From contig CAWEQH010000004.1 in the NCBI GenBank assembly GCA_963811165.1, positions 672,001 to 736,000 of the forward strand: a stretch of DNA of 64,000 bases, in the 5' to 3' direction. The notes beneath the pieces are model-generated. The model had not been told where the DNA came from. It did not search any database and saw nothing but the letters and a program-made list of their open reading frames with translations. The translations under genes were made by a program, and so were the position numbers. This DNA is from an uncultured Nitrospiraceae bacterium (lineage in GTDB: Bacteria > Nitrospirota > Thermodesulfovibrionia > Thermodesulfovibrionales > UBA6898). Positions 1,922 to 23,643 of the stretch are shown here, piece after piece; position 1 is the stretch's first letter; every line of letters starts with the position of its first letter.

Positions 1922-2809
1922 ATGCAAGAGTCTTTTCGTTCCGGATACGTTTCGATCATCGGCAGGCCGAATGTGGGAAAATCTACTCTCCTAAACGTCC
2001 TGCTGGGACAGAAGGTCTCGATCGTTGCCGCAAGACCCCAGACGACGAGAAACAGGATAGTCGGGATCAAGAATCTCCCCGGAGCCCAGATCATCTTTAT
2101 CGATACCCCGGGCATCCACAAGCCGAAAAACCTCCTCGGAGAGGTGATGCTTAGGGCCGTCAGGGAGGCCCTTCATGAAATAGACGTCATCCTCTTTGTG
2201 ACGGAACCCGGAGGTGACGCAGGCAGGGACAACCTCACAGTAGGGTCTCTGAAAAATATAGACAAGCCGGTTTTTCTTCTGATCAACAAGATAGACAGTG
2301 TCAGGAAACCGGATATACTTCGTGTCATCGATCAGTACGAGGGACTTTTCCCTTTCAAAGAGATCATCCCGGTGTCTGCTCTCAAACAAGACGGCACCGA
2401 CAGGATACTTGAAAGAATTATCGAGTATCTTCCGGCGGGCCCTCAATATTATCCTGAAGACATCGTAACGGACCAGGTCGAGAGGTTCATGGCGGCCGAG
2501 ATAATAAGAGAAAAGATTATGGAAAAAACGACCGAGGAAATCCCTTATTCCGTTGCGGTCGAAGTCCAGAACTGGGTCGAGCGGGAAGACGGTATCGTTT
2601 CCATAAGTGCGAATATATATGTTGAAAGAGAGGGGCAAAAAGGTATAATAATAGGTGAAAAAGGCAGGAAGCTGAAAGAAGTAGGCACGCTCGCCCGTAT
2701 CGAAATCGAAAGACTTCTTGACGCAAAGGTTTTTCTCCAATTATGGGTGAAGGTAAAAAAGGGGTGGCGTAACGACAAGACGGTGTTACATGAATTGGGG
2801 TATAAATAG
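1922..2809 (+). CDS. era: GTPase Era
   Basis: GRPNVGKST, DTPG and NKID motifs plus a C-terminal KH domain (GIIIGEKG). Confidence 0.97.
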   Translation: MQESFRSGYVSIIGRPNVGKSTLLNVLLGQKVSIVAARPQTTRNRIVGIKNLPGAQIIFIDTPGIHKPKNLLGEVMLRAVREALHEIDVILFVTEPGGDAGRDNLTVGSLKNIDKPVFLLINKIDSVRKPDILRVIDQYEGLFPFKEIIPVSALKQDGTDRILERIIEYLPAGPQYYPEDIVTDQVERFMAAEIIREKIMEKTTEEIPYSVAVEVQNWVEREDGIVSISANIYVEREGQKGIIIGEKGRKLKEVGTLARIEIERLLDAKVFLQLWVKVKKGWRNDKTVLHELGYK

Positions 2810-3262
2810 ATGCTTGTAGAAATGAAAGTCGAGGGTCTTCTCTTTGACCCCCGAAGCAATATGTACATTCTCCTGCTGAAGGAGATAGAAGCTTCCGGCA
2901 CCCTTCCGATCTGGATCGGGAAACCCGAGGCGGACTCGATCGCACTTGCGCTCGGAAAGGTCGCCACGCCCAGACCCCTGACCCATGACCTCGTGAAAAA
3001 TATCACCGATGGACTTAAGGTCAAGATCACGAGAATCGTGGTGACGGAGATAATCGACAACACCTATTACGCCCTTATCCACGTGAGCGACGGCAAGAAA
3101 GAGACCTTGATTGACTCCAGGCCGAGTGATGCCGTGGCGGTTGCCCTTAGGGCAAGCGCGCCGATTTTTGTGGAGGACAGTATTATGGCGACAAGGACGG
3201 CGGATGAACTTGACGAATGGCTGAAAAACCTTAAGCCTGAGGACTTCGGAAATATTATGTGA
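2810..3262 (+). CDS. Bifunctional nuclease family protein (DUF151)
   Basis: LPIWIG, PRPLTHDL and DSRPSDAVA motifs. Confidence 0.9.
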   Translation: MLVEMKVEGLLFDPRSNMYILLLKEIEASGTLPIWIGKPEADSIALALGKVATPRPLTHDLVKNITDGLKVKITRIVVTEIIDNTYYALIHVSDGKKETLIDSRPSDAVAVALRASAPIFVEDSIMATRTADELDEWLKNLKPEDFGNIM

Positions 3263-3981
3263 TGCTGCATAGGACAGAAGGCATCGTCCTTAGAACCATC
3301 CCCTTTGGAGAAGCAGACCTCATCGTAACCTACCTGACGAGTGACTACGGCATCGTCAGGGCCTTTGCAAAAAGTCCCCGTAAGATCAAAAGCAGGTTCG
3401 GAAGCAGCCTCGAACCCTTCACCCATGCGGCTATCGCTTTTTGGGGCAAGGAGGACGCGGCTCTGCCGCGACTTACCCAGGCGGACATTATCCATCCTTT
3501 CGATTCTGTCAGGGGCGCACTAAAATGTTTTCTGAAGGTTTCGGAGATGATAGAACTGACGCTGCACTTTGTTCCCGAGAGGGAGCGAAACAAGAAGGTC
3601 TATTCCCTCTTCCTGGATGCGCTTCACGCGGCCGAGACCGATTGTGAGGCCGGTCTTCTTCCTCTTTGCTATAAACTGAGGCTGTTGGAGATTGCGGGAT
3701 ATCTGCCCAGGTTGAGCGGATGCGGCAGGTGCGGGAGAGACGGAGACGTCTTCTACCTTTCTCACGGCACCGTCCTTTGCGAAGCATGTGCAAAGGGCAA
3801 TACGTCTTCCCTGCGGCTGTCTTCCGGCACGATAAGTCTCTTTACCAGTCTGCGCGGATGGGATTTTACGAAGCTCAACCGGTTGAGGCCTTCGGAAGCG
3901 CTCGTTTCAGGGCTTTCGAAGGTATTGGACGAACATATTCGCTACATTATGGAAAGAAACCTCAAGACGAAGACCTTCTGA
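3259..3981 (+). CDS. recO: DNA repair protein RecO
   Basis: TEGIVLR...GEAD N-terminus, CxxC...CxxC zinc finger, downstream of era. Confidence 0.93.
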   Translation: MMLHRTEGIVLRTIPFGEADLIVTYLTSDYGIVRAFAKSPRKIKSRFGSSLEPFTHAAIAFWGKEDAALPRLTQADIIHPFDSVRGALKCFLKVSEMIELTLHFVPERERNKKVYSLFLDALHAAETDCEAGLLPLCYKLRLLEIAGYLPRLSGCGRCGRDGDVFYLSHGTVLCEACAKGNTSSLRLSSGTISLFTSLRGWDFTKLNRLRPSEALVSGLSKVLDEHIRYIMERNLKTKTF

Positions 3982-3991
3982 ATCCCTGCCG

Positions 3992-4627
3992 TTATTGTTC
4001 CCGCATCCTCTCTTCTTCTTCCTGGAGGGTCTTGCATTCTATGCACATGGTGGTCACAGGCCTGGCCTCCAGCCGCTTCACGTCGATTTCATTTCCGCAG
4101 TCGTCGCAGACCCCGAAGGTACCGTTTTCGATGCGGTCTATGGCCTCATCGATCTTTTTCAGGAGACGCTGCTCTCTGCCGCGGAGTCTCAGCATAAAGT
4201 TCCTGTCGGTTTCAGCCGTCGCCTGGTCGCCAAGGTCAGGGAATATCGTCTGGCCGGGAAGTTCGTTAAGCGCTGATTCGGCTTCATTAAGCAAAGTCGC
4301 GCGTTGCCTGAGGAGCCTTAACTTGATCTGTTGGAGCTTTTCCTCGCGGACAGAAAGCTTTTCTTTAGGCTTATTGGATTTCTTCACAGGCACCGCTGTC
4401 ACAGGCTCCCTACGGGAAACCTTCATTGGAGCCGAAACAACTTTTTTCTTCGGGGCTTTGGCGGCAACCGCTTCTTTCTTCCCCTTCTTTGAAGGTGCCG
4501 TCTTTGCCTTTTTGGGAGACGCTGTCTTTGCCTTCAGAGTTATCGATTTCTTCCCTGCGGGTTTCGTCTTCGCAGGTTTTGTTTTACTTACGCTTTTTTT
4601 GGTATTGGTGCTCTTGATCTTGGCCAT
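3992..4627 (-). CDS. dksA: RNA polymerase-binding protein DksA with Lys/Ala-rich N-terminal extension
   Basis: DLGDQA coiled-coil tip, CDDC...CIEC zinc finger, RLEARP. Confidence 0.9.
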   Translation of the reverse strand: MAKIKSTNTKKSVSKTKPAKTKPAGKKSITLKAKTASPKKAKTAPSKKGKKEAVAAKAPKKKVVSAPMKVSRREPVTAVPVKKSNKPKEKLSVREEKLQQIKLRLLRQRATLLNEAESALNELPGQTIFPDLGDQATAETDRNFMLRLRGREQRLLKKIDEAIDRIENGTFGVCDDCGNEIDVKRLEARPVTTMCIECKTLQEEEERMREQ

Positions 4628-4782
4628 AAAGACTCCTCAATTAGGATTGAATAGATTAGCAGAGGCCCCGGCGAATAGTCAAGAAAAACGCCCTTGAAAA
4701 GGGGATTTGAAAGATACGTTTTTGTTGCCAGCTAAGTGAAGGATGAAGGGGCTTTCCCGGCGCCGAATAGGTAGGAAAGAAG

Positions 4783-7131
4783 TCAGTCTTCCGCCGGGAG
4801 GTCTCTTTGTGTAATGAGTACGATGCCCTGCCCGGGGGCGAGGTCGTAGATAAAGGGAGCAGGAATATAGTCGAGAGGATTTTCGGGAGATATGTCGATA
4901 AGAGGCGCGCCGGCCTGGAGATATTTCTGAAGGTTCTCGGCATAAAAATGCTGTGCGCGGTAAATGTCTTTGTTGAGGATGAGGAGCGACTCCTCCCGGG
5001 TATGGGTCGAGGCCTTCCACATAAGCAGGACATTGGGGTTTTCGTGATGGAGTATTTCCGTGGGCGCGTCCTCCTGAAATATCACATGCTCAGATTTGAT
5101 CCTGTTTACTTGGCCGATGAAGGGGGTGAGGTCCACTTCGGTGTTCTCCCAGTCGCCGGGTCTTGTCCTGACTACATGGAGCCTTTTTTTGAAGCCGAAT
5201 TCGTAACCCATGGGCATCATGACACCGCCCGAAAAAAGCGCCGAAAAAAGATATCGCTGCTTCAGCCCTTCAACATTTCCGCCCAGCTCCGCAGCGAGTC
5301 TTACGGTATCATGGCTCTCGGGGAAACTGATCGATGGAGCGATATCCCGCGTCAGCGCGTACTGCTTCATGAGCCAGTGCCCGTAAAAATCCCACCATTT
5401 GGAGCTGTTAAAAATATAGTCGAACCCCGCGCTTGCGGTCTTTCTCGTGAGGTCCGGAGGGTTCCCGAGTGTCTCCGCAAAAAACAGTACGCCCGGATAT
5501 GCCTTTTTGGTTTCATTGATGAGTCTTTCCCAAAGGCCCTTGGGCAACTGGTAGGCCGCGTCGCATCTGAACCCCCTGAACCCGAGTTCGGCGAGGAATT
5601 TCACTATCGAAAAGAAATAGTGATAGAGACCTTCTTTGTCCCTTGTGTTTCTGTGGTCGAACTTCGCAAGGTCTTTCCAGACCACTTTTTTCCCGTTTTC
5701 GTCGGCGAAGGGATGGGCGACGCGGCCGTTTGTCTCCCAGAGAAACCATTCCGGGTGGGATTTGAGAAGGGGGGAATCGACTGAGCAATGGTTGATCACA
5801 AGGTCCATCATCAGCGCAAGACCGAGTTTCCCGGCGACTCCCGCAACATCCTGTACCTGCTCTACGGACGACTTTCCCGTTTCATTGTCAATCAGGAGGG
5901 GATTAAAATCGAAATAGTCGGCTATGGAATAGAGACTCCCCGAACTGCCGGGGCGCTGTATGGGGTTGACGAAGATCCAGTTGAAACCCATCTCTGATGC
6001 CCTTGCGAGGTGGCCCCCCCATTCGGTAAATTTTCCGGCAAGAAGAGGAAACAGATTATAGATCACCATCTTTTTCGTGTAAAGGACTTCTTCGGCATCC
6101 GGACATGCCTTCAGGAGCAGCCTCTGGTTTTTTGAGATGACTGAGAGCCAGTAATTCATTCTTTCCGCATTGCCTTTGTCCACCCAGTGACTAAAGAGAT
6201 ATGACGCGTTGCCTAATGAGAGCCTGCCTTCGACCGGGTGTATCTCCAGGGAAAAAGAGACCTTGTCAGCCCCGGGTTTGAGAAGCGCCTCGTTGACGAT
6301 ACGGGAAAGCCCCGACAGACCGAACATCGGTGCAAGAGACCTTTTCCCGTGATATTCGAAGGGGATCGGGATCTCGGTCAGGAAGCTGAGGTGGTCCGAG
6401 ACGCCGAAAGGACTTAAGTCGGAAAGCGGGTGGCCGTCGTGAAGGTGGAAGTGCAGGGGCTTCCCAAGCGGACCGAGCTCCCGGACGACCGAGAGCACTT
6501 TTTCCAGTGCGGAGGCGACCGCGCGTTCAACGTCTTCAATAAGGTCCGGGAGGTTGGGGCTGTCCGGCCTTAGTGAGCAGATGTCTTTACCCGGATGTTT
6601 CCGGGAATATTCGGCCCTCGTCTGCCGGATGCCTATGTGCCCCACGTCTATGCATGCACTGACGAATTCGAGGTCCGCTATCTCTTTAAAGATATTTACG
6701 AAGACCTCCGGGTCGAGACCTGCCGCATATTCGATAAAGAGGAGAGGACCTCCTCCGACTTCTCTCAGTCCGGAATTCAGTTCCCGCAGGGCAGAGAGAT
6801 ATTCCTTCAGAAGCATAGGGACATCATCCCGGTCATGGACCACGAGGCCGTAGACCCTCCCCTTGAAACCCCTTGCGAAATCGATGACCGACTGTCTTGA
6901 CGATCTATCGAATATGTTCATGCCGCGGTCGAGATGCACAACTACCGGCGCATCATGAAAAGGCCGGAAGCCCAGGAGCCATTCGAGCTCCTCTGCGGAT
7001 GCGGCATAATATTCCGCCCCCATCCTGGCTTCCCTGAAGCGCAGTGCCGCAAGCTGAAGCAGGGCGTCGTCGCCGTCTATTCTTTTTTGAAACAATCCAA
7101 GTATTTTGGGACAGGTCCTTATCGCCGGCAT
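4783..7131 (-). CDS. Fusion of an AP-endonuclease-2/xylose-isomerase-like TIM barrel (about 6070-7131) and a GH13 alpha-amylase-family domain (about 4783-6069)
   Basis: TIM motifs IEYA, CIDVGH, HFHLHDG, SDHL, LEIH. GH13 regions MDLVINH, GFRCDAA, FAETLG, SHD give an intact Asp/Glu/Asp triad. Confidence 0.85.
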   Translation of the reverse strand: MPAIRTCPKILGLFQKRIDGDDALLQLAALRFREARMGAEYYAASAEELEWLLGFRPFHDAPVVVHLDRGMNIFDRSSRQSVIDFARGFKGRVYGLVVHDRDDVPMLLKEYLSALRELNSGLREVGGGPLLFIEYAAGLDPEVFVNIFKEIADLEFVSACIDVGHIGIRQTRAEYSRKHPGKDICSLRPDSPNLPDLIEDVERAVASALEKVLSVVRELGPLGKPLHFHLHDGHPLSDLSPFGVSDHLSFLTEIPIPFEYHGKRSLAPMFGLSGLSRIVNEALLKPGADKVSFSLEIHPVEGRLSLGNASYLFSHWVDKGNAERMNYWLSVISKNQRLLLKACPDAEEVLYTKKMVIYNLFPLLAGKFTEWGGHLARASEMGFNWIFVNPIQRPGSSGSLYSIADYFDFNPLLIDNETGKSSVEQVQDVAGVAGKLGLALMMDLVINHCSVDSPLLKSHPEWFLWETNGRVAHPFADENGKKVVWKDLAKFDHRNTRDKEGLYHYFFSIVKFLAELGFRGFRCDAAYQLPKGLWERLINETKKAYPGVLFFAETLGNPPDLTRKTASAGFDYIFNSSKWWDFYGHWLMKQYALTRDIAPSISFPESHDTVRLAAELGGNVEGLKQRYLFSALFSGGVMMPMGYEFGFKKRLHVVRTRPGDWENTEVDLTPFIGQVNRIKSEHVIFQEDAPTEILHHENPNVLLMWKASTHTREESLLILNKDIYRAQHFYAENLQKYLQAGAPLIDISPENPLDYIPAPFIYDLAPGQGIVLITQRDLPAED

Positions 7132-10100
7132 TCCACTTGCCTCCTCTGCTGCGGACGTGCCTGGACAAGGAAGATTTTGTTATCGACGACGAGCCCTTCT
7201 ATGTCCAGCGGCAGTCCGAATGAAGTTTCGACGAGGCTGCCTATGCCTCCTATGCGCTTAGATAATTCGGTGCGGAATTTCTTATCCTTTGAAAAGGGAA
7301 TTTTTGAGTAGTCGATGATACTTTGTACGATATCCGCGCGGCGGTCCCGGACAAAGGCAGTGCAGTAACTGGCGAAGGAGAGCATCTGCATATCGCCGGT
7401 GTTTTTTCGGTAGACCATACGAAACGGAGAGCCGGGCTCACGGCCCGACGCAAGGGTTTCGCCGAGTCCGACTGCACACTCAATCAGGATTTCGTTTTCG
7501 CTATTGTTGACGGGATTGACCGTATGCATGATGAAGGACATATCGGCAGGCATCATCGTCTGGATGAGTACCGCCATCCGGGCCCTGCCATGGGGGACAG
7601 ATGCGTTTTGTCTTGCCTGTACCGCACGCCTGTTCCAAAGTGATGCCCATACCTCTTTTACTGCCTGTGCGATACCGGACTGCGGCACGTTTGAGATGGA
7701 ATCATAAAGCCCGGCCCCCGCAAGTCCTTCCAGGTCCTCACAGTTCGAACTCGAACGGACCATGAGCCGCTCGCCCTTTGCAAAATGGGCAGCAATGCCA
7801 GAGACCAGCTCATTGTCCAGAGGAAGCTGTAAGACTAGCTCCCTGAGTCTTTGCAGCCGCCCCTCCGCGTCCAGGAGTGGCGCTCGATCAATTTTGCTTA
7901 AGACAGAGGAGTATTCAGCCTCAAAAGAAGAAAGGGAATGGAGTGACTCCTCCATGACCCCAAAGGGGATTACGACACTCCTGGGCACGTCGAAATCAGT
8001 CTTACTCTGTGTCGCGATCTCCGCGAGGCGCCTTGCCCCGTCCGCCTTCCCGCCGCCGGTCGACGAACTGACCACGTCGAGCGTGATGATTTTCCGAGAG
8101 GGAATCTCAGCAGAGACCTCCGGCACGATCACCTTCTCGGTGCGACCTTTAAAGTCATCCCCGTCCTCCATCTTCGTGGCTTCTATATCAAAGGTGTCTG
8201 CGGTCACGCATATCCTTATCGGTTGTCCGGAAAGTCTCTTTAGCTCCACGATGCGGCTGATGTTTTCGCACGAGACAAATACTATGCCCCTTTGGCGCGC
8301 CCTGACCGAAAGATGCGAAAGAATCGGGGTCTCATCGGCAATAATGAGGCCAATGACCTGCGGGGGTATCTCCTCGTCGCCTTCAGCTTTATCCGTCAAC
8401 ACGACGAGCGGTCCGTCACCGGCATCTGCCAAAGAGGCCAATGACCGGACAGTTACGAGGCGGCCCGATGCTTTGCCCGGGACGATGACGTCCCACGGCT
8501 GCAAGGAAGCGCGTGTCCTGATGGACGTAAGGAGCAAAGCGACAAGCTTAGAGAGCTGAAATACCGGATGGCTTCTGATAACGGCTTCTGCATAGTTCTT
8601 TACCGCATGCTCCGACACACCCAGGGCGGACCCCAGATTCTTCACCTTCTCCGGCAGCAGCGCAAGGATTTTGTCCGAATATTCTTCGGCGACCCTGCGG
8701 CACCTGTCTGTGGTGGCTTTAAGACGCAGGAGACAGTCGCGGTCTGCAAGGTCGAAATCGGCATCCCAAGCCCCGAGTTCGGCTTCGACGGCGCGGCATT
8801 CCTCGGGGGCGATTCCTCCGAGACGGAGATTTTCTATGACGAGGGCGAGTGCGCCAAGGGCGGTGTTCCAGGGCAGATCCTCCAAAGAGGCTATCGCATT
8901 GATGATTGTGCTGAGAAGGACAAAGGAGTGGTCTTCGAGCGTGATATCTGCAGACTTCAGACGGTGCCCCTTTGCGGCCGCGATTTTATCAGTCCGGGCA
9001 ATGGCCCTGCGAAGTCCTGTCAATAGGGCGAGTTCCTTTATGGCGGGATAAGGGTTTCCTGGTTTTTCGCCGGACCCTTCGGAGAGGCCGAGGAAGTCGT
9101 CTATGAGTTGCGGTCTGTCAATATCACCCTTTTCCTTTAATGTAATGAGCATGTCTTTAAGACTGCCTGCGTTAAAGAAGTCCTTCAGCTCCTTGTGGAA
9201 GCGCCTGAACTCCTCAATGAAGGCCTGCGGGTATGGGGCGTCCGAAGCCGTGATTCTCTTAAAGAGGGCCTCGGAAGTTATGAGGTCCTCAGGCCCTGCC
9301 GAACGGTGGAGTTTGTTCTGAAGCGTTGTCTTTATCTCCTGTTTTAACTCCTGCGGGATGTCGTTTCTGTGGGCGATGTCCCTGATACGGGTGAGCGGCT
9401 CGGCCCTCATAAACTCGGTATCGAATGAGGGGAGCCATGGATAGATGTTCCTTATGACCAGCCTGTTTTCCGCATTCTCGATTCCGGCAAGGCGCGTATA
9501 TATCCGTTCAGCAAGTTTTGCATGGTGCGAGGGACGGTGGTGACCTCCTTCCTCGCTGCAGCCGATCTCACCTGTACCAAGGAACCTCAGATAGACAGCG
9601 ATATAGATGAGCAGTTCCAGGTCCGGGTCCTCAGGTCCTTCGATCAGCAGCCTATTGACCCATTCAAGCCTCTTCCTCCAGCTGGTAAAGCGTCTGTTGG
9701 CTGCGACAAACCTTTCTACGATCCCCTCATGCGTATCAGCTTGGCCTGGTCTTTCTTCGGGCGTATCTGCCGCTCCGCGTATAATAGTAATGAGTCGGTC
9801 CCTTGCATCGATCAGAAGACGTTGCGGCTCGGGCCACTGTTCAAAAATTATCGAACCTGAGAACATCCGCTTCTTCAGCCGTATGATAAGCCCTTCTATC
9901 CCGGCGGGGTCCCGGCCTGCCGGACCGGTGAAAATCGTTAAGTGGCTGTCCCGGTCTCCGTAATTTTCATGCATATGGATATGGATGATAGGGACCTCCT
10001 TATCAAGCAGGTCCAGGAAGCCGAGATAATCATTTCGCGTCCCGCTATAGAGGTTTGCATGCCCTATGTCGAGACACATACCAACGAGAGAAATATTACC

Positions 10101-10586
10101 GGAATTGAATTTCCGCAGCTCGTGGAAAAAAAGATTGAAATCCGCCGGTGATGTATACACTGTATTTTCGACCGAAAGATGAATGCCCGCCTCACCAAGT
10201 ATGACCAGAAGAGGCCGGAGGGCAGCTATAAAGGCCGCCGGTCCCAGGTCCGAGCGAAGATGGACATTAAAAAGCGATGCGCCGATGTCCTTCGCAAATT
10301 CGACAGTCTCTTGGAAGGACGCCGCATCAGTCGTAGTCAAAGGGTCCGACGGCCAGGGGGCATGCACTGAAAGACGTATATCCCGGGCTTCCGAGAGACG
10401 GCGGATATCAGTGCGCGTCTTTTGAGGGATATCGCTTAGCAGCCAGCCTTCTCCTGTGGTTTTTTTGTCCGGAAACCACTCAAAGGCACGAAACCCGTTC
10501 TCCACTGCAAATTCAAATGGTTTCATGATGGGAGCAGCCGAATAGGCGGTCTGGTTGCCGATCCTTATGGAGGGGTTGTCAGGCAT
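7119..10586 (-). CDS. Phosphoglucan, water dikinase (PWD/GWD3)-like protein with N-terminal AP-endonuclease-2-like TIM barrel
   Basis: SWRKRLE, EEGGHHRPSHHA and LPSFDTEF..PLTRIRDIAHRNDIPQELKQEIKTTLQNKLHRSAGPEDL match plant PWD motifs. It has the phosphohistidine motif LSHLSVRARQ and the PPDK-type ATP domain VRSSSNCEDLEGLAGAGLYDS. ATG at 10586 overlaps the upstream stop. Confidence 0.88.
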   Translation of the reverse strand: MPDNPSIRIGNQTAYSAAPIMKPFEFAVENGFRAFEWFPDKKTTGEGWLLSDIPQKTRTDIRRLSEARDIRLSVHAPWPSDPLTTTDAASFQETVEFAKDIGASLFNVHLRSDLGPAAFIAALRPLLVILGEAGIHLSVENTVYTSPADFNLFFHELRKFNSGNISLVGMCLDIGHANLYSGTRNDYLGFLDLLDKEVPIIHIHMHENYGDRDSHLTIFTGPAGRDPAGIEGLIIRLKKRMFSGSIIFEQWPEPQRLLIDARDRLITIIRGAADTPEERPGQADTHEGIVERFVAANRRFTSWRKRLEWVNRLLIEGPEDPDLELLIYIAVYLRFLGTGEIGCSEEGGHHRPSHHAKLAERIYTRLAGIENAENRLVIRNIYPWLPSFDTEFMRAEPLTRIRDIAHRNDIPQELKQEIKTTLQNKLHRSAGPEDLITSEALFKRITASDAPYPQAFIEEFRRFHKELKDFFNAGSLKDMLITLKEKGDIDRPQLIDDFLGLSEGSGEKPGNPYPAIKELALLTGLRRAIARTDKIAAAKGHRLKSADITLEDHSFVLLSTIINAIASLEDLPWNTALGALALVIENLRLGGIAPEECRAVEAELGAWDADFDLADRDCLLRLKATTDRCRRVAEEYSDKILALLPEKVKNLGSALGVSEHAVKNYAEAVIRSHPVFQLSKLVALLLTSIRTRASLQPWDVIVPGKASGRLVTVRSLASLADAGDGPLVVLTDKAEGDEEIPPQVIGLIIADETPILSHLSVRARQRGIVFVSCENISRIVELKRLSGQPIRICVTADTFDIEATKMEDGDDFKGRTEKVIVPEVSAEIPSRKIITLDVVSSSTGGGKADGARRLAEIATQSKTDFDVPRSVVIPFGVMEESLHSLSSFEAEYSSVLSKIDRAPLLDAEGRLQRLRELVLQLPLDNELVSGIAAHFAKGERLMVRSSSNCEDLEGLAGAGLYDSISNVPQSGIAQAVKEVWASLWNRRAVQARQNASVPHGRARMAVLIQTMMPADMSFIMHTVNPVNNSENEILIECAVGLGETLASGREPGSPFRMVYRKNTGDMQMLSFASYCTAFVRDRRADIVQSIIDYSKIPFSKDKKFRTELSKRIGGIGSLVETSFGLPLDIEGLVVDNKIFLVQARPQQRRQVECRR

Positions 10587-13500
10587 TATCAATACCGACC
10601 TGCTGTCGCGACTGGACAACATAGAACTTGCCCTGAGAATAAGCCCCCTCGATGTCCTGGGGAGGTCCGAGCGCCCTGTCCACTTCAGGTCCTATCCCGG
10701 CGATACCGGAGAGGATGTTTTTTCTGAAGGCTTCGTCCCATAAAAGGCGGTCCTTCGTATAATCGATCGTGACTTTCTTCGGTTGCGGCAGCAGAAAGCT
10801 GTCGTAAAGACCCGCCCCTGCGAAACCCGGCAGGTCCTCGCCGCTTGAATCCGAGCGGAAGATAAGACCGCCCCCATAAAGGCCTTCGCTCTTACTCGGA
10901 AATGAAAGTATGTAGGGTGCGCCTCCATCTTTTTTGCTGGTAAAGCTGAGTGCTTTTCCAGGGTAATTGCCGACGAGCGCCTCACCGAGACCGAGCACAA
11001 CCTCCGCATATATCTCGTCTTTTGCCTGTGAAATCGGGTTTACTGTGTGGATCACGAAACTGTAGTCAGCCTCGACCACCTTTTGGATAAGTACCGCCAT
11101 AAAAAGGTCCTCATGAGGTATCCCGTGTGCCTCGCGGCTGAGATGGGCCCTTTCGTTCCATTTTGAGGCCCATACGCTTTTGATACAGCTCCACGCATCT
11201 TCCCACTTCGGGGGCCGTGAGATACCTGAGGCGTCCATGACCGAATAAAGGGATATACTTAGTTCCTGGGGAGCCTTCATATCGTGTATCGTCTTTCTGA
11301 TTTCCTCAAGCAGTTCCCGGGGTTTCTCCGGACCGTCCGCGAGCTTCTGCATGAGTTCAATGATTTTTCCGGCACAGTCCCTATTCTCATCATGAGACAG
11401 GACTTTATCGAACACGCCGAAGGGCAGGGCGGCAGAGGCAGGAAGCCCGATCCAATCGGGGAGGTTTCCCCTCAGGAGTCTCAGGTGGTTCGATTTTCCG
11501 CCGACGTTCATCTCGGTGAATTCATCCATAGTTACCGCATAGCTTGTGAAAGCGGGTTTTGCGGCCGGCCCCGCTGAATATTGCACCCCGGCAGCAGGGA
11601 CCACCCCTGCTCCAGCCATCTCCTCGGCAACGATATCGCCGCTTGCGGTTATTCCCATTTTTAGTGTATGTCCTTTTAGGGACTTCAGGTGATCTAATTG
11701 CGCCGCATTGTAACACGTGGCGAATAGGACACCTGCGTTTCTTGCACGCACCGCAATATGGGAGAGCAGGTCGACAACTGCCGGGGTAACTATCGCAGAG
11801 ACCCCCTTTGGGATCTCCTCATATCCTGTGACCTTCCCGGCCACTATGATGGCCGGCCGGTCGAAACTTTTTCCCTCGACGGACTTCAGCGCATCGGCGA
11901 TCTCCAGTTCCCCTTCAGCATGTGCCGGACTTATCACCTGCCAGTCTCCCATGAGGGCGTTCTTCCTAAGAAGAGGGTCGAGGTATCGCAAGAGGATCGA
12001 CATGGCGAAGGCAAGACGGCCGCGCAGCACCTCTTCGACAAAAAGGGTTACGGCCCACGCATCCGCCCGAAATGCCCCTCCAAGATATTCCGCCTTAGGC
12101 TTGAAAAGCCGGTTATACTGATCTACAAACATCCCTAGGTACCGGCCTATCCGGTCGGTCACCGCCTTGGCGTGGAGCGACCATTCCCGCCCGAACCTCT
12201 CCATCCTTCTGAGCTTCTCCCAGTGACTCAGGCAGTTGAGGAGTTCTTCTCCGGCATTTGTGATGCACAGGTTCTCAAGCACCTTCGAGGTCATCTCCGT
12301 AAGCTCGTTGGGGCCGAGATCGGGTACGCCGGACCTCTCTACGACAATTCGCAGGAAGTCCTCAAGTGCGATGTCGAGAAAGAGGAAGTCACGGACCGTT
12401 TCTGCGCGACCTGTCAGATGGTTTGCGGTCCTGCGGCGTGCCTCGGTGATTTTTTCGGCGAGTATGCCGGCCATTCCTGCGTCGTTGTGATGGCGCCAGA
12501 TGAAATCCATAACGGCGTGCATATCGGGGTCGAAAAGGTATCTCGCCGTATGAATTGCAGTGCCCAGATCGGTGCCTGTATGGACCGCCTTCAATATCCC
12601 GAGGAAATGCTCGAAGTCGCGTATCAGGGGGTCTTTCAGGTGGGGAATGAAATCGGGGTGCGATCTGATCGGTCTCTCATAGCCTTCAAGCCTCTCCCTT
12701 GTGACGCCGCCCTCATTGAGTTTCTTGTAGAACCAATCGAGGTTGCCGTTGCTTCTGAGGAACTCCAGATATGCCTCGCAGATCACGATATCGTCGGGGG
12801 TCGTGTTGTTGTGCAGTTTCTGGTGCCACTCCTCCATAAAATGGCCCGAGACCTCTTTGATATTATGGCGGTGCATGATATTTAAGACCTCGTCGCGGAC
12901 CCGCTGGGCGTCTCCGCCTCTGCCGAGTGTTGTCATAATGAGTCTCAACATCTCACGCCCGGCGGGGTTTTCCGCATAAAGGCTTGCGAGTTTTAAAGTG
13001 AGCCTGTCCATCGAGTGGCCGAGTTCTCTGGGCTGTGTATTGTAATTGCGCTGCCAGTCGAGCTGTCTGATAAATGAATAACGGAGCCAGACGAAGATCA
13101 GGGCGAGGCCGTCGACGCTGTCTTTGACCTTATCGAGAAGGTCATAGCAGAGATTGAAACGGTGCATCAGCGTCCAGGAATTCCGGCCTGTTTCATGTTC
13201 GATGATCTCTTCCGCGATAGGAAGGAGTTCCCCTCCTCCGAGGGCCGCGTCGCCTGCCGTCTGCGCAATCACCGGGATATCGATCCGGTAATTTTTTCCG
13301 CGGTTATTGTCCCAGCGGTTGTCTCCCGGAAAAAAGAGGACGAAATCCACCGAGCTGAGGCCGGAGGAGCTATCGAGAATGATTTCTATAAGAGCATGGC
13401 CGTCCTTTTTTAAAAAAGGCGTCTGGATCGCCTTAGAGCCGAAGGCGCGGCTGCCCTCGGGCCATGATTGCTTTGCAGGGACTTGCCATGACGCGTTTCC

Positions 13501-13680
13501 TCTTTTTCTGACCCCCCAATGAAGGAGAGCGTCGGTATCGGCATCCGCACGGATGGTGATCTCTGTAACAGAGTCCCCGATCTCCTTTTCGACAAACAGC
13601 ACGAGGCCGTTTTCAGTTGTGATTTTATCTTTTTGCATAGTCGGCTGACGACGGACCCTCAAGAGGTCCACGATATTCAT
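10579..13680 (-). CDS. Alpha-glucan, water dikinase (GWD1/R1)-like protein with N-terminal CBM45-like domain
   Basis: LLHWGV...W..P and FVL...WDNNRGKNY (CBM45-like). WLRYSFIRQLDWQRNYNTQPREL, GRGGDAQRVRDE, EEWHQKLHNNTTPDDIVIC, phospho-His LSHIAVRARN, VWASKWNERA, GLGEALVGNYPG, EDLPGFAGAGLYDS. The start could be 13638. Confidence 0.9.
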   Translation of the reverse strand: MNIVDLLRVRRQPTMQKDKITTENGLVLFVEKEIGDSVTEITIRADADTDALLHWGVRKRGNASWQVPAKQSWPEGSRAFGSKAIQTPFLKKDGHALIEIILDSSSGLSSVDFVLFFPGDNRWDNNRGKNYRIDIPVIAQTAGDAALGGGELLPIAEEIIEHETGRNSWTLMHRFNLCYDLLDKVKDSVDGLALIFVWLRYSFIRQLDWQRNYNTQPRELGHSMDRLTLKLASLYAENPAGREMLRLIMTTLGRGGDAQRVRDEVLNIMHRHNIKEVSGHFMEEWHQKLHNNTTPDDIVICEAYLEFLRSNGNLDWFYKKLNEGGVTRERLEGYERPIRSHPDFIPHLKDPLIRDFEHFLGILKAVHTGTDLGTAIHTARYLFDPDMHAVMDFIWRHHNDAGMAGILAEKITEARRRTANHLTGRAETVRDFLFLDIALEDFLRIVVERSGVPDLGPNELTEMTSKVLENLCITNAGEELLNCLSHWEKLRRMERFGREWSLHAKAVTDRIGRYLGMFVDQYNRLFKPKAEYLGGAFRADAWAVTLFVEEVLRGRLAFAMSILLRYLDPLLRKNALMGDWQVISPAHAEGELEIADALKSVEGKSFDRPAIIVAGKVTGYEEIPKGVSAIVTPAVVDLLSHIAVRARNAGVLFATCYNAAQLDHLKSLKGHTLKMGITASGDIVAEEMAGAGVVPAAGVQYSAGPAAKPAFTSYAVTMDEFTEMNVGGKSNHLRLLRGNLPDWIGLPASAALPFGVFDKVLSHDENRDCAGKIIELMQKLADGPEKPRELLEEIRKTIHDMKAPQELSISLYSVMDASGISRPPKWEDAWSCIKSVWASKWNERAHLSREAHGIPHEDLFMAVLIQKVVEADYSFVIHTVNPISQAKDEIYAEVVLGLGEALVGNYPGKALSFTSKKDGGAPYILSFPSKSEGLYGGGLIFRSDSSGEDLPGFAGAGLYDSFLLPQPKKVTIDYTKDRLLWDEAFRKNILSGIAGIGPEVDRALGPPQDIEGAYSQGKFYVVQSRQQVGIDNA

Positions 13681-14051
13681 TATACCTAATATATGGGGAA
13701 GGGGATATGAGGGGAAATCAGTACGGGGGGGTTGAAAAAGACATGCGGAGGGACTGGGGTAGCATCATATCAAAACAGAATGGCGTTCTTCCAGCTTTTT
13801 CTATAGCTTCAACGATGGCAATGAGGCGCAGGGGCAACAGCCTTTGCAAAAAACCACAGAGGCTATTCCCCGTCGTCTCGATTGGTGTTATACCAACCTT
13901 TATTTCCTTCTTAAATTTAGGTGAGCATGACAGGCGTGCCAAAAAAAAGATGTGAATCAACTTCAAAAAGGATATAGAATCGTCTCCAGAAGTGTGGTAA
14001 GATTTTGGCAAGGTTGAGTCCTTATAATCCATTTTTAAGAGGTGGCGATAC

Positions 14052-15107
14052 ATGCCTGAAAAGACGATCGAATCCTTCGGCGTCAAGCGCCTTGAAATCC
14101 TCAGCGAGACCGGGGACGCGGATGCCGCACTTATGCCCCCGCTTTCAGACGCGCAGATTAAGGAGCTTTACGAGCTGCTTGTAATTTCAAGGACCTTTGA
14201 CGGCCGCGCACTGAATCTTCAGAGGGAAGGAAGGCTAGGCACCTATGCGCCTGTTTTTGGGCAGGAGGCCTCTCAGGTAGGCAGCGCCTATGCCTTTGAC
14301 AAGACCGACTGGCTCTTCCCGACGTTCAGGGAGATGGCCGTCTTCATGGCTGTGGGTTATCCGATGCATATGATCTTTCAGTACTGGTCCGGCGACGAAC
14401 GAGGCCTCAGGGTGCCGGACGACCTCAATATCTTTCCCATCTCTATCCCGGTGGGTACACATATACTCCACGCCGTCGGCGCGGCGATGGCTATGAAATA
14501 CAAAGGCGACAAGAAGGCTTCCGGGGTATATTTCGGAGACGGAGGCACGTCTGAGGGCGATTTCCATGAGGGCATGAACTTCGCGGGAGTGTTCAACGCG
14601 CCGGTCGTCTTTATCTGTCAGAACAACCACTGGGCGATATCCGTGCCGAGGGAAAAACAGACGGCAGCGAAAACCCTCGCCCAAAAGGCCGTGGCCTACG
14701 GATTCGAAGGTATTCAGGTCGACGGTAACGATGTCTTTGCCGTGTACAAGGCCACAAAGGATGCTGTGGACAAGGCCAAAAGAGGGGAAGGCCCCACACT
14801 GATAGAATGCGTTACCTACAGGATGGCAGACCATACGACCGCTGATGATGCGTCGAGGTACAGGACGAAAGAAGTGATAGAGGCATGGAAGCCGAAGGAC
14901 CCGATCCTGAGGGTGAAGCTTTTCATGGAGAAGAAGGGCATATGGACGGAGACCGATCAGAAGGAACTTGAGGAGAAGTCGAAGGCCAGGGTCGACGAAT
15001 GGGTGAAGATGGAGGAGGCGATAGAGAAGCCCTCTCCGAAGGACATGTTCCTCTATACCTACGAAAAACCCACCCCGCGACAGATCAAAGAGATGGGGGA
15101 TTTTTGA
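14052..15107 (+). CDS. pdhA: Pyruvate/2-oxoacid dehydrogenase E1 alpha
   Basis: TPP motif GDGGTSEGDFHE...QNN and HTTADD. Confidence 0.9.
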   Translation: MPEKTIESFGVKRLEILSETGDADAALMPPLSDAQIKELYELLVISRTFDGRALNLQREGRLGTYAPVFGQEASQVGSAYAFDKTDWLFPTFREMAVFMAVGYPMHMIFQYWSGDERGLRVPDDLNIFPISIPVGTHILHAVGAAMAMKYKGDKKASGVYFGDGGTSEGDFHEGMNFAGVFNAPVVFICQNNHWAISVPREKQTAAKTLAQKAVAYGFEGIQVDGNDVFAVYKATKDAVDKAKRGEGPTLIECVTYRMADHTTADDASRYRTKEVIEAWKPKDPILRVKLFMEKKGIWTETDQKELEEKSKARVDEWVKMEEAIEKPSPKDMFLYTYEKPTPRQIKEMGDF

Positions 15108-15108
15108 T

Positions 15109-16071
15109 ATGCCGAAAATGAACATGGTCCAGGCGATCAACCTTGCCCTTAAGGAGGAGATGGAGCGCGACAAAAACGTGGTCGTCCTCGGGGAAGACGT
15201 GGGCAGAGACGGAGGCGTTTTCAGAGTGACCGAAGGGCTCCTCGATCTCTACGGCCCCGAGCGCGTAATGGACACGCCCCTGGCCGAATCGGGTATCGTC
15301 GGCACCGCCATAGGCATGGCCGCCTATGGGTTGCGTCCGGTTGCCGAGATCCAATTTATGGGTTTCATATATCCCGCGGTCGATCAGATATTCAATCATG
15401 CCGCGCGAATGCGCTCGCGCTGCCGAGGAAGGTACACCATCCCCCTTGTCGTCAGGACACCTTACGGCGTCGGCATAAAGTCGCCGGAGCACCATTCGGA
15501 AAGTTCAGAGGCGCATTTCTGCCATATGCCGGGGATAAAGGTGGTTGTCCCTGCGACCCCGTATACTGCCAAAGGACTGCTCATCTCTTCGATCAGGGAC
15601 CCGGACCCGGTGGTCTTTCTCGAATCGACCAGGCTTTATAGGATGATAAAGGAAGACGTTCCGGAGGGTGAATATACCATTCCCCTGGGGCAGGCGAGGG
15701 TCGTGCAGGAAGGCAGGCAAGTTACCGTCATCTCCTGGGGGAGTATGCTGCACAGGGCCTTGCAGGCGGTGAGCGCGGTCGATGCCGAGGTGATAGATCT
15801 TATGACCCTTCTGCCTTTTGATGAGGAGACGGTATACAAGTCCGTGAAGAAGACCGGCAGGGTTGTGATTGTGCAGGAGGCCCCGAAGACCGGCGGGTTC
15901 GGCGCCGAGATCTCGGCATCTATTGCGGAAGATGCGATGCTTTATCTTAAAGGACCGATAAAGAGGGTGACCGGCTATGACGTGGTGCTCCCCCTCCCGA
16001 AGCTCGAGGATTATTATATGCCGACGGTAAACAGGATAAGGAAAGAGATCAATGAGGTTTTGAAATATTGA
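15109..16071 (+). CDS. pdhB: Pyruvate/2-oxoacid dehydrogenase E1 beta
   Basis: GEDVG..GGVFR, DTPLAESGI, EIQF, EHHS. Confidence 0.9.
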   Translation: MPKMNMVQAINLALKEEMERDKNVVVLGEDVGRDGGVFRVTEGLLDLYGPERVMDTPLAESGIVGTAIGMAAYGLRPVAEIQFMGFIYPAVDQIFNHAARMRSRCRGRYTIPLVVRTPYGVGIKSPEHHSESSEAHFCHMPGIKVVVPATPYTAKGLLISSIRDPDPVVFLESTRLYRMIKEDVPEGEYTIPLGQARVVQEGRQVTVISWGSMLHRALQAVSAVDAEVIDLMTLLPFDEETVYKSVKKTGRVVIVQEAPKTGGFGAEISASIAEDAMLYLKGPIKRVTGYDVVLPLPKLEDYYMPTVNRIRKEINEVLKY

Positions 16072-21034: not shown

Positions 21035-22312
21035 ATGCCTTTTAATTTCGTATTGCCCGACCTGGGCGAGGGAATCACCGAGGGAGAGGTAAGGAAGTGG
21101 ATCGTCAAGGAAGGGGACAACGTCGAGGAACATCAGACCGTACTTGAGATAGAGACGGACAAGGCTGTCGTTGAGGTGCCCTCTCCAAGAAAGGGAAGGG
21201 TTCTGAAAATCAACAAAGAAGTCGGCGAGATCGCCAAGGTGGGCGATGTACTGATGTCAATTGCCGAAGAGGGCGAGGCGGTCGAAGAAAAGAAGCCGGC
21301 CGAAGCGAAAAAGGCTGGAGAGAAAAAAGAGGAAAAGGAAAAATCTGTTTCGGTTGTAGGCGTGCTGCCTGAGGAAGAGGAAGAAGCCGAACCGCGGAAA
21401 AAGGAAAAGGAGAAATCGGTTTCGGCCGCAGGTGTGCCGTCTGAAGGGGAAGAAACAGTGCTTGCGACACCGGCCGTCAGGGCCGCGGCAAAGGAACTAG
21501 GCGTAGACCTTTCGAAGGTGAAGGGGACGGGCCCCGAGGGGAGCATCACAAAGGAAGACCTGGCTTCAGCCGCCCCATCGAAGGAAAAAAGGGCCGAGGA
21601 CGTATTCGGGCCGGTGGAACGCATGCCGCTCAGGGGCCTCAGAAGGACGATAGCCAAGAACCTTATCGCTTCGCAAAAGACCACAGCGTTTGTGACAGGG
21701 ATGAACGAGGTGGACATCACGGACCTTTGGGACCTGAGGGAGAAGGAGAAAAAGCCGCTTTTGGAAAAGGGGGTCCATCTTACCTTTCTGCCTTTTTTTA
21801 TCAAGGCCGTCATCCACGCCCTTGCCGAGCACCCGATGCTCAATTCCTCTCTCGATGACGAAAGGGAAGAAATCGTCATAAAGAAATATTACGCAATCGG
21901 TGTTGCGGTGGATACCCCCGACGGACTCATGGTGCCGGTCATAAAGAACCCCGCCGGCAAAACGATCCTCGAACTTTCCCTTGAGATCCAGGACCTGAGC
22001 GTGAAGGCGAGGGAAAGAAAAATAAAACTCGAGGAGATGAAGGGCGGCACCTTCACGATAACGAACTACGGCCATTTCGGCGGCTATTTCGCCACCCCGA
22101 TCATCAACTATCCCGAGGCCGCGATCCTGGGGACAGGCATGATAACAGAAAAGCCGTGGGTAAAAAACGGCAAGATCGTCGTACGAAAGATCCTGCCGCT
22201 TTCGCTCACCTTCGACCACAGACTGACAGACGGCGTCGACGCGTCAAGGTTCCTTGCGAAGGTGTCGGGGTATCTGGAAGACCCGGCCCTGATATTCATC
22301 GAAAGCGCATGA
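21035..22312 (+). CDS. pdhC: Dihydrolipoamide acyltransferase E2
   Basis: One lipoyl domain (ETDKA), E3-binding domain (ATPAVR...GTGPEG), catalytic DHRLTDG. Confidence 0.92.
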   Translation: MPFNFVLPDLGEGITEGEVRKWIVKEGDNVEEHQTVLEIETDKAVVEVPSPRKGRVLKINKEVGEIAKVGDVLMSIAEEGEAVEEKKPAEAKKAGEKKEEKEKSVSVVGVLPEEEEEAEPRKKEKEKSVSAAGVPSEGEETVLATPAVRAAAKELGVDLSKVKGTGPEGSITKEDLASAAPSKEKRAEDVFGPVERMPLRGLRRTIAKNLIASQKTTAFVTGMNEVDITDLWDLREKEKKPLLEKGVHLTFLPFFIKAVIHALAEHPMLNSSLDDEREEIVIKKYYAIGVAVDTPDGLMVPVIKNPAGKTILELSLEIQDLSVKARERKIKLEEMKGGTFTITNYGHFGGYFATPIINYPEAAILGTGMITEKPWVKNGKIVVRKILPLSLTFDHRLTDGVDASRFLAKVSGYLEDPALIFIESA

Positions 22313-23643
22313 GGCCTCTTACCCCTCTTTTCGAGCCGAAATCCATCGCCCTTGTCGGCGCCGCCCATACAGAGACGAGGCTCGGCGGGGTTGTGCTCAA
22401 GAATCTCCTTGGGTTTAAGGGGAAGGTCTATCCCGTAAACCCCAAGTATGACGAACTAATGGGAATCAAGGCATATCGAAGCATTGCCGATATCCCGGAG
22501 ACCGTGGACCTCGCACTGGTCTTGAGGCCTGCCCCGGAAGTGCCTGAAATACTCAGGGAATTTAAGGAAAAGGCGAGGTGCGTGATCGTGATGAGCTCGG
22601 GCTTTGCGGAGGTGGGCGAGACCGCCCTCCAAGACGAGGCGGGGCGCGCCGCAAAGGATGCCGGTTTCAGGGTCGTAGGTCCCAACTGCATGGGGCTCTA
22701 TAATCCCCACCGCTCGCTCGATACTTTTTTTCTGCCGAAGGAGAGGCTCCGAAGACCAAAGAGGGGCAATGTAGCGATAGTCTCGCAAAGCGGCGCGATC
22801 CTGTCCTGTCTTTTGGGCGCGCTCCAGGAAGCCAACGCCGGCGTGTCGAAGGCCATCGGCTACGGAAACGCGATCGATGTCGCGGAATCGGACCTCTACG
22901 ACTATCTCGCCCATGATAAAAAGACCGAGGTGGTTGTCTCTTATATCGAGTCGGTTGGCGACGGCAGGAGGTTCATCGAAAGCGCAAGGGAATTGACCGG
23001 AAAAAAACCGCTTCTCGTTCTTAAATCGGGCAAGGGGGCGGGCGGACAGGCGGCTGCCTTTTCCCACACCGGCAGGCTTGCGGGCAGGTATGAGGTCTTT
23101 CATTCCATAGTAAGGCAATCCGGCATACGCGAGGTCTCTGATTTCGACGAGCTCATGGAAGCGACCAAGGCGCTGTCGTATCAGAGGCAGTCAAAGGGAA
23201 ACAGGGTCTGCATTATCACCAACGGGGGAGGGTCCGGTGTGCTTGCGGCGGATGAATGCATGAGACAGGGACTTGATGTGGTCGGCATATCTGCCGAAAA
23301 GAAAGCGCGGCTTCACCGTCTCTTCCCGAATTTCTTTGTGGTCAATAACCCCGTGGACCTGACCGCTCAGGTGACGGACGAAGACTATGTAACAGTGCTC
23401 GATGAACTCGCCGATGATTACGACGGTTTTCTTATCATCTCCCTTCCTAACGTCTCCGGTATTACCGTAAATCTGGGAGATCTGCTCGCAAAGGCAAAGA
23501 AAGATTTGGACAAGCCTATCACCGCCAATATAGCCCAGAGCGGGATTACCGGAAAGATCATCTCTATACTCGAAAGGGCAAGGATACCGGTATATCCCTC
23601 CCCCGAAAGTGCGGTAAAGGGACTGAAGGCATTATTGTCGTAG
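22309..23643 (+). CDS. Acyl/acetate-CoA ligase (ADP-forming) alpha-subunit-like CoA-binding protein
   Basis: PKSIALVGA, YPVNP, GPNCMG, SQSG, phospho-His SHTG, TNGGG, NPVDL. ATG at 22309 overlaps the E2 stop (ATGA). No ATP-grasp domain. Confidence 0.85.
   Translation: MRPLTPLFEPKSIALVGAAHTETRLGGVVLKNLLGFKGKVYPVNPKYDELMGIKAYRSIADIPETVDLALVLRPAPEVPEILREFKEKARCVIVMSSGFAEVGETALQDEAGRAAKDAGFRVVGPNCMGLYNPHRSLDTFFLPKERLRRPKRGNVAIVSQSGAILSCLLGALQEANAGVSKAIGYGNAIDVAESDLYDYLAHDKKTEVVVSYIESVGDGRRFIESARELTGKKPLLVLKSGKGAGGQAAAFSHTGRLAGRYEVFHSIVRQSGIREVSDFDELMEATKALSYQRQSKGNRVCIITNGGGSGVLAADECMRQGLDVVGISAEKKARLHRLFPNFFVVNNPVDLTAQVTDEDYVTVLDELADDYDGFLIISLPNVSGITVNLGDLLAKAKKDLDKPITANIAQSGITGKIISILERARIPVYPSPESAVKGLKALLS

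Follow-up and report, generated by a model that had tools for sequence, protein, structure and literature searches.

The stretch of DNA analysed here (the window) comprises 64,000 nucleotides from an uncultured Nitrospiraceae bacterium (GenBank assembly GCA_963811165.1, contig CAWEQH010000004.1, positions 672,001 to 736,000); positions given below are counted from its first letter. The contig is 879 kb long, in a genome of 3.66 Mb and 95% completeness, and the window carries an operon of three overlapping minus-strand genes (13638 to 4783), which encode, in this order, a homolog of the plant glucan, water dikinase (GWD), a homolog of the phosphoglucan, water dikinase (PWD) preceded by an endonuclease-IV-like barrel (TIM1), and a glycoside hydrolase of family GH13 preceded by a second barrel (TIM2) (Table 1). 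The overlaps amount to 8 nt at the GWD stop and PWD start, and to 13 nt at the PWD stop and GH13 start. A sequence-only reading of this DNA had proposed three overlapping genes; the open reading frames (ORFs) 10579-13680, 7119-10622 and 4783-7131 on the minus strand bear this out, the codons it had given for the phospho-His residues of both dikinases are correct, and all eight of its motifs that we checked are present in the sequences. It had recognized the dikinases and the GH13 enzyme but overlooked both predicted metal-binding barrels. The locus encodes a genuine and conserved variant, in bacteria, of the GWD/PWD system of plants, together with two partner domains absent in plants. Among the genome matches, the nearest named loci are from Thermodesulfovibrionales (80% identity) and, at 74%, from Ca. 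Sulfobium mesophilum, which points to a host in Nitrospirota.

Table 1. Features of the operon and its upstream spacer, in window coordinates (pLDDT, predicted local distance difference test; aa, amino acids)
Feature	Position or residues	Strand	Basis or remark
GWD gene, 1019 aa	10579..13638	-	homologues start at ATG 13638; in-frame ATG 13680 adds 14 aa (1033 aa)
Single CBM45-like Ig domain (PF23166) of GWD	13279..13632	-	E 1.7e-22
Central helical domain of GWD (residues 132-561; contains E535, E536, R539)	11956..13245	-	match to 9ha9, E 1.8e-90
GWD phospho-His H627 (potato H992) in PF22973	11758..11760	-	Pfam and alignment
TIM1-PWD fusion gene, 1155 aa	7119..10586	-	ORF 7119-10622; ATG at 10586
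TIM1, endonuclease-IV-like barrel, candidate glucan phosphatase	9777..10586	-	PF01261; model pLDDT 89.9
TIM1 invariant residues	H75 H109 E140 D173 H176 H204 H206 D213 H215 E249	-	alignment of 51
PWD core: helical, phospho-His and ATP-binding domains; no CBM20	7122..9731	-	identity to CBM20-type PWDs, tree
PWD phospho-His H758	8313..8315	-	Pfam and motif search
TIM2-GH13 fusion gene, 782 aa	4783..7131	-	separate genes in most relatives
TIM2, second barrel, residues 1-345 of GH13 protein	6097..7131	-	profile match to TIM1; model pLDDT 91.7
TIM2 invariant residues	H66 H99 E134 D162 H165 H229 D232 D246 H247 E296	-	alignment
GH13 catalytic domain	4786..6072	-	triad D524 (5560-5562), E553 (5473-5475), D608 (5308-5310)
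Hairpin-forming short repeat	13760..13883	.	upstream intergenic; 5 partial copies in genome

Judged by its sequence, the first protein is a GWD with an intact catalytic His. Its Pfam domains follow the order PF23166, PF22973 and PF01326, i.e. the phospho-His domain precedes a C-terminal ATP domain, and the latter two have the same order in the PWD, as the sequence-only reading had proposed for both proteins. The central domain matches that solved for potato GWD1 (PDB: 9ha9), which, according to PMC13553574, lacks a clear counterpart among other PDB entries. A 750-aa query from this protein is 42-44% identical to nearly all of its 120 best long matches, whose given names are all of land plants, and the GWD is 40-41% identical to plant GWD over about 1040 columns vs. 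23-27% to PWDs; trees and identities alike group it with plant GWD1 and not with PWD, land plants being the only named eukaryotes in the comparison. By our own count via the pepper GWD (P0241), H627, E535/E536/R539 and R558/W566 are the equivalents of potato H992, E900/E901/R904 and R923/W931, whose roles we take from the same paper. E535, E536 and R539 are invariant in the GWD alignment (A3), and the EExxR motif occurs in 117 of 120 bacterial GWDs. Domain order, central domain, reciprocal similarity and tree all agree with the GWD1 signatures first recognized in the letters alone. Compared with plant GWD1 (StGWD1/R1, Arabidopsis SEX1; EC 2.7.9.4), which shares the succession of CBM45, central helical, phospho-His and C-terminal ATP domains, the window GWD has a single CBM45, not the pair that the plant enzyme and many bacterial relatives possess, and LFATC in place of CFATC, lacks the transit peptide and the PF23229 region, and is encoded in an operon; tandem CBM45 and CFATC are typical, not universal, traits of the plant enzyme. 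A search of a plasmid collection at E 1e-20 found no GWD. A GWD 58% identical to that of the window was found on a 4.4-kb contig filed as archaeal (L006:2375-4387), which is possibly mis-binned.

The second protein is a predicted PWD, with PF22973 and PF01326 following an N-terminal PF01261 barrel (residues 1-270). Its core is 37.7-39.6% identical to five of the six CBM20-type PWDs tested, 32.6% to the sixth and 26-28% to GWDs. The likeness to PWD/GWD3 (EC 2.7.9.5, CBM20-type; 38-40% over about 920 columns) includes the RIRDIAHRNDIP and QNKLHR.AGPEDL blocks, the phospho-His, and a common side of the GWD/PWD branch in the tree described below. For the PWD without its barrel, the nearest Atlas cluster is 100% eukaryotic, most commonly from Streptophyta; a length-filtered search with the PWD returned no named eukaryote among the best 120 matches. 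The reference set for PWD comes from a cluster-representative search that gave 150 proteins, 59 of which group together in a FastTree overview. CBM20, i.e. the plant PWD architecture, was found in 37 of the 43 members of this group that were scanned; the 59 rows carry no taxon names, and we call them "eukaryotic", and nine of them "green-like", from their architecture and N-termini. None of the 59 contains either barrel. As the window PWD has the PF01261 barrel where CBM20-type PWDs have their N-terminal CBM20, it is a variant rather than a typical PWD. The PWD signatures listed by the sequence-only reading are present, and similarity and tree agree with them, but its GGHHRP hexamer is not general: GGHHRP or GGHFRP occurs exactly in just 2 of 120 long bacterial PWDs, which share the looser motif EDG[G/R]H[H/F/Y]RP.

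The two barrels are related to each other. TIM1 scores above the Pfam cut-off of PF01261, and TIM2 is homologous to TIM1 by profile comparison (probability 94.7), with no match of its own in Pfam, NCBIfam or, by sequence, among solved structures. By predicted fold, and probably by His/Asp/Glu metal positions, both belong with the AP (apurinic/apyrimidinic) endonuclease 2 superfamily (PF01261: endonuclease IV (EndoIV), CbiR, MJ1311, TTHB071, sugar isomerases), from which they differ in being only 16-20% identical to the nearest structures and fused to glucan enzymes. Nine of the TIM1 residues in Table 1 that are invariant across 51 sequences (all but H206) stand at positions that we take to be those of the ligands of the three metals in endonuclease IV; eight of these nine align with His/Asp/Glu of EndoIV-family chains in weak matches (E 2e-4 to 0.015). 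The barrel reaches 31 bits with the CbiR model vs. a cut-off of 105; CbiR itself shows that hydrolysis of phosphoesters in substrates other than DNA is within the reach of this superfamily (PMC7733943).

In plants, dephosphorylation is required before hydrolysis proceeds (PMC12892837, as far as accessible), and SEX4, LSF2 and laforin, which clear phosphate from C6 and C3 and so open the way for amylases, are Cys-based dual-specificity phosphatases (DSP). No DSP domain with a glucan-binding module was found in the operon, and the one DSP-family protein found in the genome is a stand-alone protein of 181 aa with a signal-like N-terminus. Since this sole match is short and has such an N-terminus, the barrels are the obvious phosphatase candidates. 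Their likeness to SEX4, LSF2 and laforin would lie in the proposed role alone, the metal-binding TIM barrel being unrelated in fold and chemistry and its function a prediction. Twelve proteins of about 1490-1530 aa (within P0247-P0265) are TIM1-PWD-TIM2 triple fusions, and five more are PWD-TIM2. A distant stand-alone TIM1 paralogue (29% over 114 aa) was found at G000:C4:606300-607073, with no linked glucan genes so far as checked.

Analysis of the distribution reveals a close association of barrels and kinases. From 129 genome matches we kept 80 loci: 47 from Nitrospirota, 13 from Thermodesulfobacteriota, 7 filed as Myxococcota, 2 each from Verrucomicrobiota and Acidobacteriota, 1 each from three further phyla, and 6 unassigned. 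TIM1 immediately follows GWD in 50 of the 64 loci whose downstream sequence is long enough, TIM2 is present in 26 of 31 PWD loci (of the 5 without it, 4 run into a contig edge), and all four parts occur together in 21 of 47 long loci. Among 201 genomes of the order, with counts made from match lists and no p-value given since related genomes are not independent, a dikinase (by its phospho-His domain) occurs in 45, TIM1 in 43 and both in 41. TIM2 was found in 13 of the 18 genomes with two dikinases, the second of which we presume to be PWD without genome-by-genome confirmation, and in 0 of the 27 with one. GH13 is present in 27 of the 45 dikinase genomes; the barrels thus track the dikinases more closely than GH13 does. 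In two other lineages TIM1 accompanies the dikinase in 6 of 6 carriers (107 genomes) and in 2 of 3 (149 genomes). The pairing outlasts loss of linkage, e.g. in one genome (G096) GWD lies at 676,746 and TIM1 at 22,588 of the same contig. In a set of 120 long bacterial PWDs, picked for a length of at least 1177 aa, which favours fusions, every protein is fused to a barrel (TIM1 in 115, TIM2 in 17). The overall distribution is patchy, with 16 of 301 genomes above the cut-off in the phylum, 3 of 149 and 6 of 107 elsewhere, and none among 14 control genomes. Family f7 of the order shows the system in its simplest form: all 16 of its genomes possess GWD and TIM1, often far apart or on different contigs, and only one has GH13.

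The surroundings of the operon point to glucan metabolism. Recurrent neighbours in relatives are a GH57 branching enzyme with DUF4912, a GT5 glycogen synthase, a GT4, a second GH57, a phosphorylase and GlgB. A look-up of glg genes in the genome of the window (16 proteins scanned) found GlgC and GlgA (two each), GlgB, GlgX, TreY, TreZ and two full-length phosphorylases, as well as a GH57 branching-enzyme-like protein below its cut-off; a search for GH77 found none in this 95%-complete genome. Because of the glycogen genes among the neighbours and the glycogen set of the genome, the substrate is very probably the cell's own alpha-glucan. It is probably cytoplasmic: the sequence-only reading had seen no signal peptides, and by a crude test none of the three proteins has a hydrophobic stretch at its N-terminus (maximal 19-residue hydropathy 0.3-0.8). 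DUF4912 stands beside the GH57 branching enzyme downstream of GH13 in 12 loci (L055:14710-15540 and 11 others), which suggests that it has a role in glucan metabolism.

Taken together, these data lead us to propose, with moderate confidence, that the operon is a module for the reversible phosphorylation ("writer-eraser") of the cell's own alpha-glucan, and that some bacteria probably add phosphate to the glucan they store. The parts of this proposal are not equally secure: GWD and PWD are very likely glucan kinases, the split of positions between C6 (GWD) and C3 (PWD) is reasonably likely, and phosphatase activity of the barrels is a tentative assignment. GWD would bind the glucan via its CBM45 and transfer the beta-phosphate of ATP onto H627 and then to C6 of a glucosyl residue; PWD would perform the same transfer at C3 of pre-phosphorylated chains. 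The phosphate would loosen or separate long helix-forming chains, which GH13 could then cut. The barrels, acting as three-metal phosphoesterases in place of SEX4, LSF2 or laforin, would strip the polymer, or phospho-maltodextrins released from it, of phosphate, and the genomic pairing suggests that TIM1 partners GWD and TIM2 partners PWD. A glycogen-like polymer with locally ordered chains is a more likely substrate than a true starch granule; plant GWD favours ordered chains according to the part of PMC13011383 available.

Several observations weigh against this proposal, in addition to the selection for length and the kinship of genomes mentioned above. A highly branched soluble glucan is a poor substrate for both plant GWD and PWD (PMC13011383, same part). 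Glucan-binding modules are few, with one CBM45 in GWD and no CBM20 in PWD, and potato GWD deprived of one CBM45 loses its stimulation by maltodextrin (PMC13553574). At the position of potato E971 the window GWD differs from plant GWD1 in having Tyr606, and 120 bacterial GWDs have Glu in 11 and Asp in 74 cases. In four of the 45 dikinase genomes, which all belong to one family, TIM1 is missing and barrel matches are weak; conversely, GWD went unmatched in two genomes with TIM1. TIM2 has D-H where TIM1 has the D-x-H loop. EndoIV and CbiR are mainly diesterases. In fold searches with the predicted models, MJ1311 (Z 22.4, root-mean-square deviation (rmsd) 3.0, 233 aligned) and the African swine fever virus (ASFV) AP endonuclease (Z 22.2, rmsd 3.2, 250 aligned) tie as matches of TIM1, sugar epimerases follow closely at Z 20-21, and the top rows for TIM2 are an isomerase (Z 19.5) and IolE (Z 19.4); for these models, the fold scores fail to separate phosphoesterase from isomerase.

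The explanation that competes best keeps the kinases on alpha-glucan and makes the barrels isomerases, epimerases or lyases acting on phosphorylated breakdown products, or non-catalytic phosphoglucan-binding modules that replace CBM20; we consider it somewhat unlikely. Most solved members of the fold are isomerases, epimerases and dehydratases, which lie within 1-3 Z of the EndoIV-like rows, and TIM1 occupies the position of CBM20 in plant PWD. However, TIM1 retains the His residues with which strands 3 and 4 end, as well as the D-x-H loop, in alignment with EndoIV, and to our knowledge isomerases lack these EndoIV-type His residues and this loop. Keto-glycoside lyases need an oxidoreductase, and none is found among the 10 annotated neighbour clusters. 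The invariant predicted metal ligands in both barrels speak against a pure binding role.

For the trees, 37 of 270 rows were dropped (fewer than 700 query residues covered), and a set of 62 rows was hand-picked from the remainder. In the quick tree (62 rows, 691 columns) a branch of 100 splits GWD from PWD, with bacteria and plant-type proteins on each side; the pair in the window is thus not the product of a recent duplication. A branch (86) separates the 26 CBM20-group rows from the rest of the tree, to which all 29 bacterial rows belong. The approximately unbiased (AU) test (LG+F+G4, 2000 replicates, which IQ-TREE reports as too few, and constrained searches of about 58 s each) rejected a tree in which the bacteria join the nine green-like rows (p 0.0006), and rejected neither their position beside either CBM20 half (0.73, 0.25) nor one outside it (CBM20 monophyly 0.45). 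In the GWD tree, which contains no red algal or alveolate GWD and whose bacteria were sampled by closeness to the query, land plants and one unnamed protein group together (96) and the root falls among bacteria on a very long branch. As sampled here, the trees reject transfer from the green-like clade, yet cannot place the root.

An extended form of our proposal, in which a position-specific bacterial C6/C3 cycle with barrel erasers unrelated to SEX4 and laforin would be the source of a eukaryotic pair that swapped the barrels for CBM20 and DSP, appears unlikely. The version of the sequence-only reading, with an insoluble starch-like store and a GWD/PWD pair that arose in bacteria and passed to eukaryotes, appears quite unlikely. 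Its bacterial origin accords with the wide spread and diversity of both paralogues in bacteria, with the separation of CBM20-type PWDs from the bacterial rows and the rejected green-like nesting, and with the rooting of both quick trees among bacteria; set against it are the alternative root positions, which the AU test leaves standing, the very long outgroup branches (3.2 and 6.0), the patchy spread, and the legend of Fig. 9 in PMC6260743 (2018), according to which some bacteria could have gained GWD by lateral transfer. Its insoluble glucan finds a parallel in the correlation of GWD with crystalline glucan in eukaryotes described in the accessible part of a preprint (10.64898/2026.09.25.754361), which there deals with eukaryotic GWD alone, and has against it an ordinary glycogen gene set with two branching enzymes and the paucity of glucan-binding modules.

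The same reading regarded the two dikinases as hallmarks of starch-storing eukaryotes. They are indeed so treated, but bacterial GWDs were already noted in that figure legend and are common in metagenomes, and in the automatic annotation of JGI many homologues are named "glucan" or "phosphoglucan water dikinase". In the portions available, PMC13666283 treats the prokaryotic machinery as unknown and PMC13553574 does not mention bacteria; our literature search, with most subscription papers outside its reach, brought up no publication dealing with the barrels, the operon or PWD in bacteria. That both dikinases occur in a bacterium equipped with the full set of glycogen genes, and that relatives are spread across several phyla, is surprising from the viewpoint of starch biochemistry. 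The compact bacterial proteins make storage-glucan phosphorylation, the origin of GWD and PWD, and the existence of a metal-barrel glucan phosphatase testable, and could be useful for structural work and starch modification.

The GH13 enzyme bears on a further alternative, in which it would be a GlgE-like transferase and the module would serve synthesis, phosphorylation shaping or capping the growing chain; we consider this very unlikely. The sequence-only reading had called the enzyme an amylase, and it does have an intact Asp/Glu/Asp triad in a PF00128 domain and motifs that are amylase-like rather than GlgE-like. Its best PDB match is the alpha-amylase 4gkl (Thermotoga AmyB, E 9e-18), with GlgE structures among the best matches (5cgm, E 6e-16); it shares the triad and conserved regions with both, reaches no NCBIfam cut-off, carries CDAAY and ESHD in place of the VDNPH and TPD of GlgE, and lacks the GlgE N-terminal domain. 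The Atlas cluster that matches it best bears the automatic name maltosyl-transferring starch synthase, and phosphate reduces the affinity of branching enzyme (PMC13011383, in the part consulted), both of which would fit synthesis. So would a GT4 that adjoins the operon in 11 of 80 loci (e.g. L027:19728-20888) and whose best NCBIfam model is TIGR02149 (142 bits, cut-off 302), but this GT4 was not found in the genome of the window at E 1e-30, and the five GH13 genes found there include no TreS. We therefore do not favour GlgE identity, given the missing motifs and N-terminal domain and the GT4 not found. The enzyme represents a conserved subfamily tied to the operon, with 63-81% identity for all matches but one across the order.

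It is extremely unlikely that the dikinases are PEP (phosphoenolpyruvate) synthase or rifampin-phosphotransferase-like enzymes with a small-molecule substrate (the sequence-only reading had already set their domain order apart from that of PEP synthase): their ATP-binding domains match these families, but the best NCBIfam scores are 72 and 109 bits vs. cut-offs of 598-1700 and cover the ATP domain only, the domain order is different and fits GWD/PWD, as does the tree, and the GWD carries both CBM45 and the central domain specific to its family. That the segment stems from a eukaryotic contaminant or was joined chimerically, as the status of GWD and PWD as eukaryotic hallmarks might suggest, can be dismissed: a 15,374-base contig of peat run X2 spans window positions 2000-13727 with 371 differences and one gap, a related locus (L001) has the same genes downstream, the G+C content at third codon positions (GC3) of the operon genes (0.61-0.64) lies inside the range of the flanks (0.57-0.70), and the four parts recur together in other long loci.

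Upstream of the operon, the match of the X2 contig ends at 13727, hence the spacer varies among strains. The repeat in this spacer has partial copies on contigs C10 and C1, with 74-92% identity. A scan of 3900-14200 against Rfam gave no match, and promoter-like sites were not above chance (4 vs. a shuffle mean of 6.1). A sigma-70-like site on the minus strand (6055-6083, 11/12 match) straddles Met354, which is the start of the GH13 domain and of the separate gene in relatives, and is probably a coding coincidence, since it overlaps this start. Beyond the spacer, as named from reading the translations, lie genes resembling those of pyruvate dehydrogenase E1 alpha and beta (14052-16071) and E2 (21035-22312), and an oppositely oriented Mla-like transporter block sits between them.

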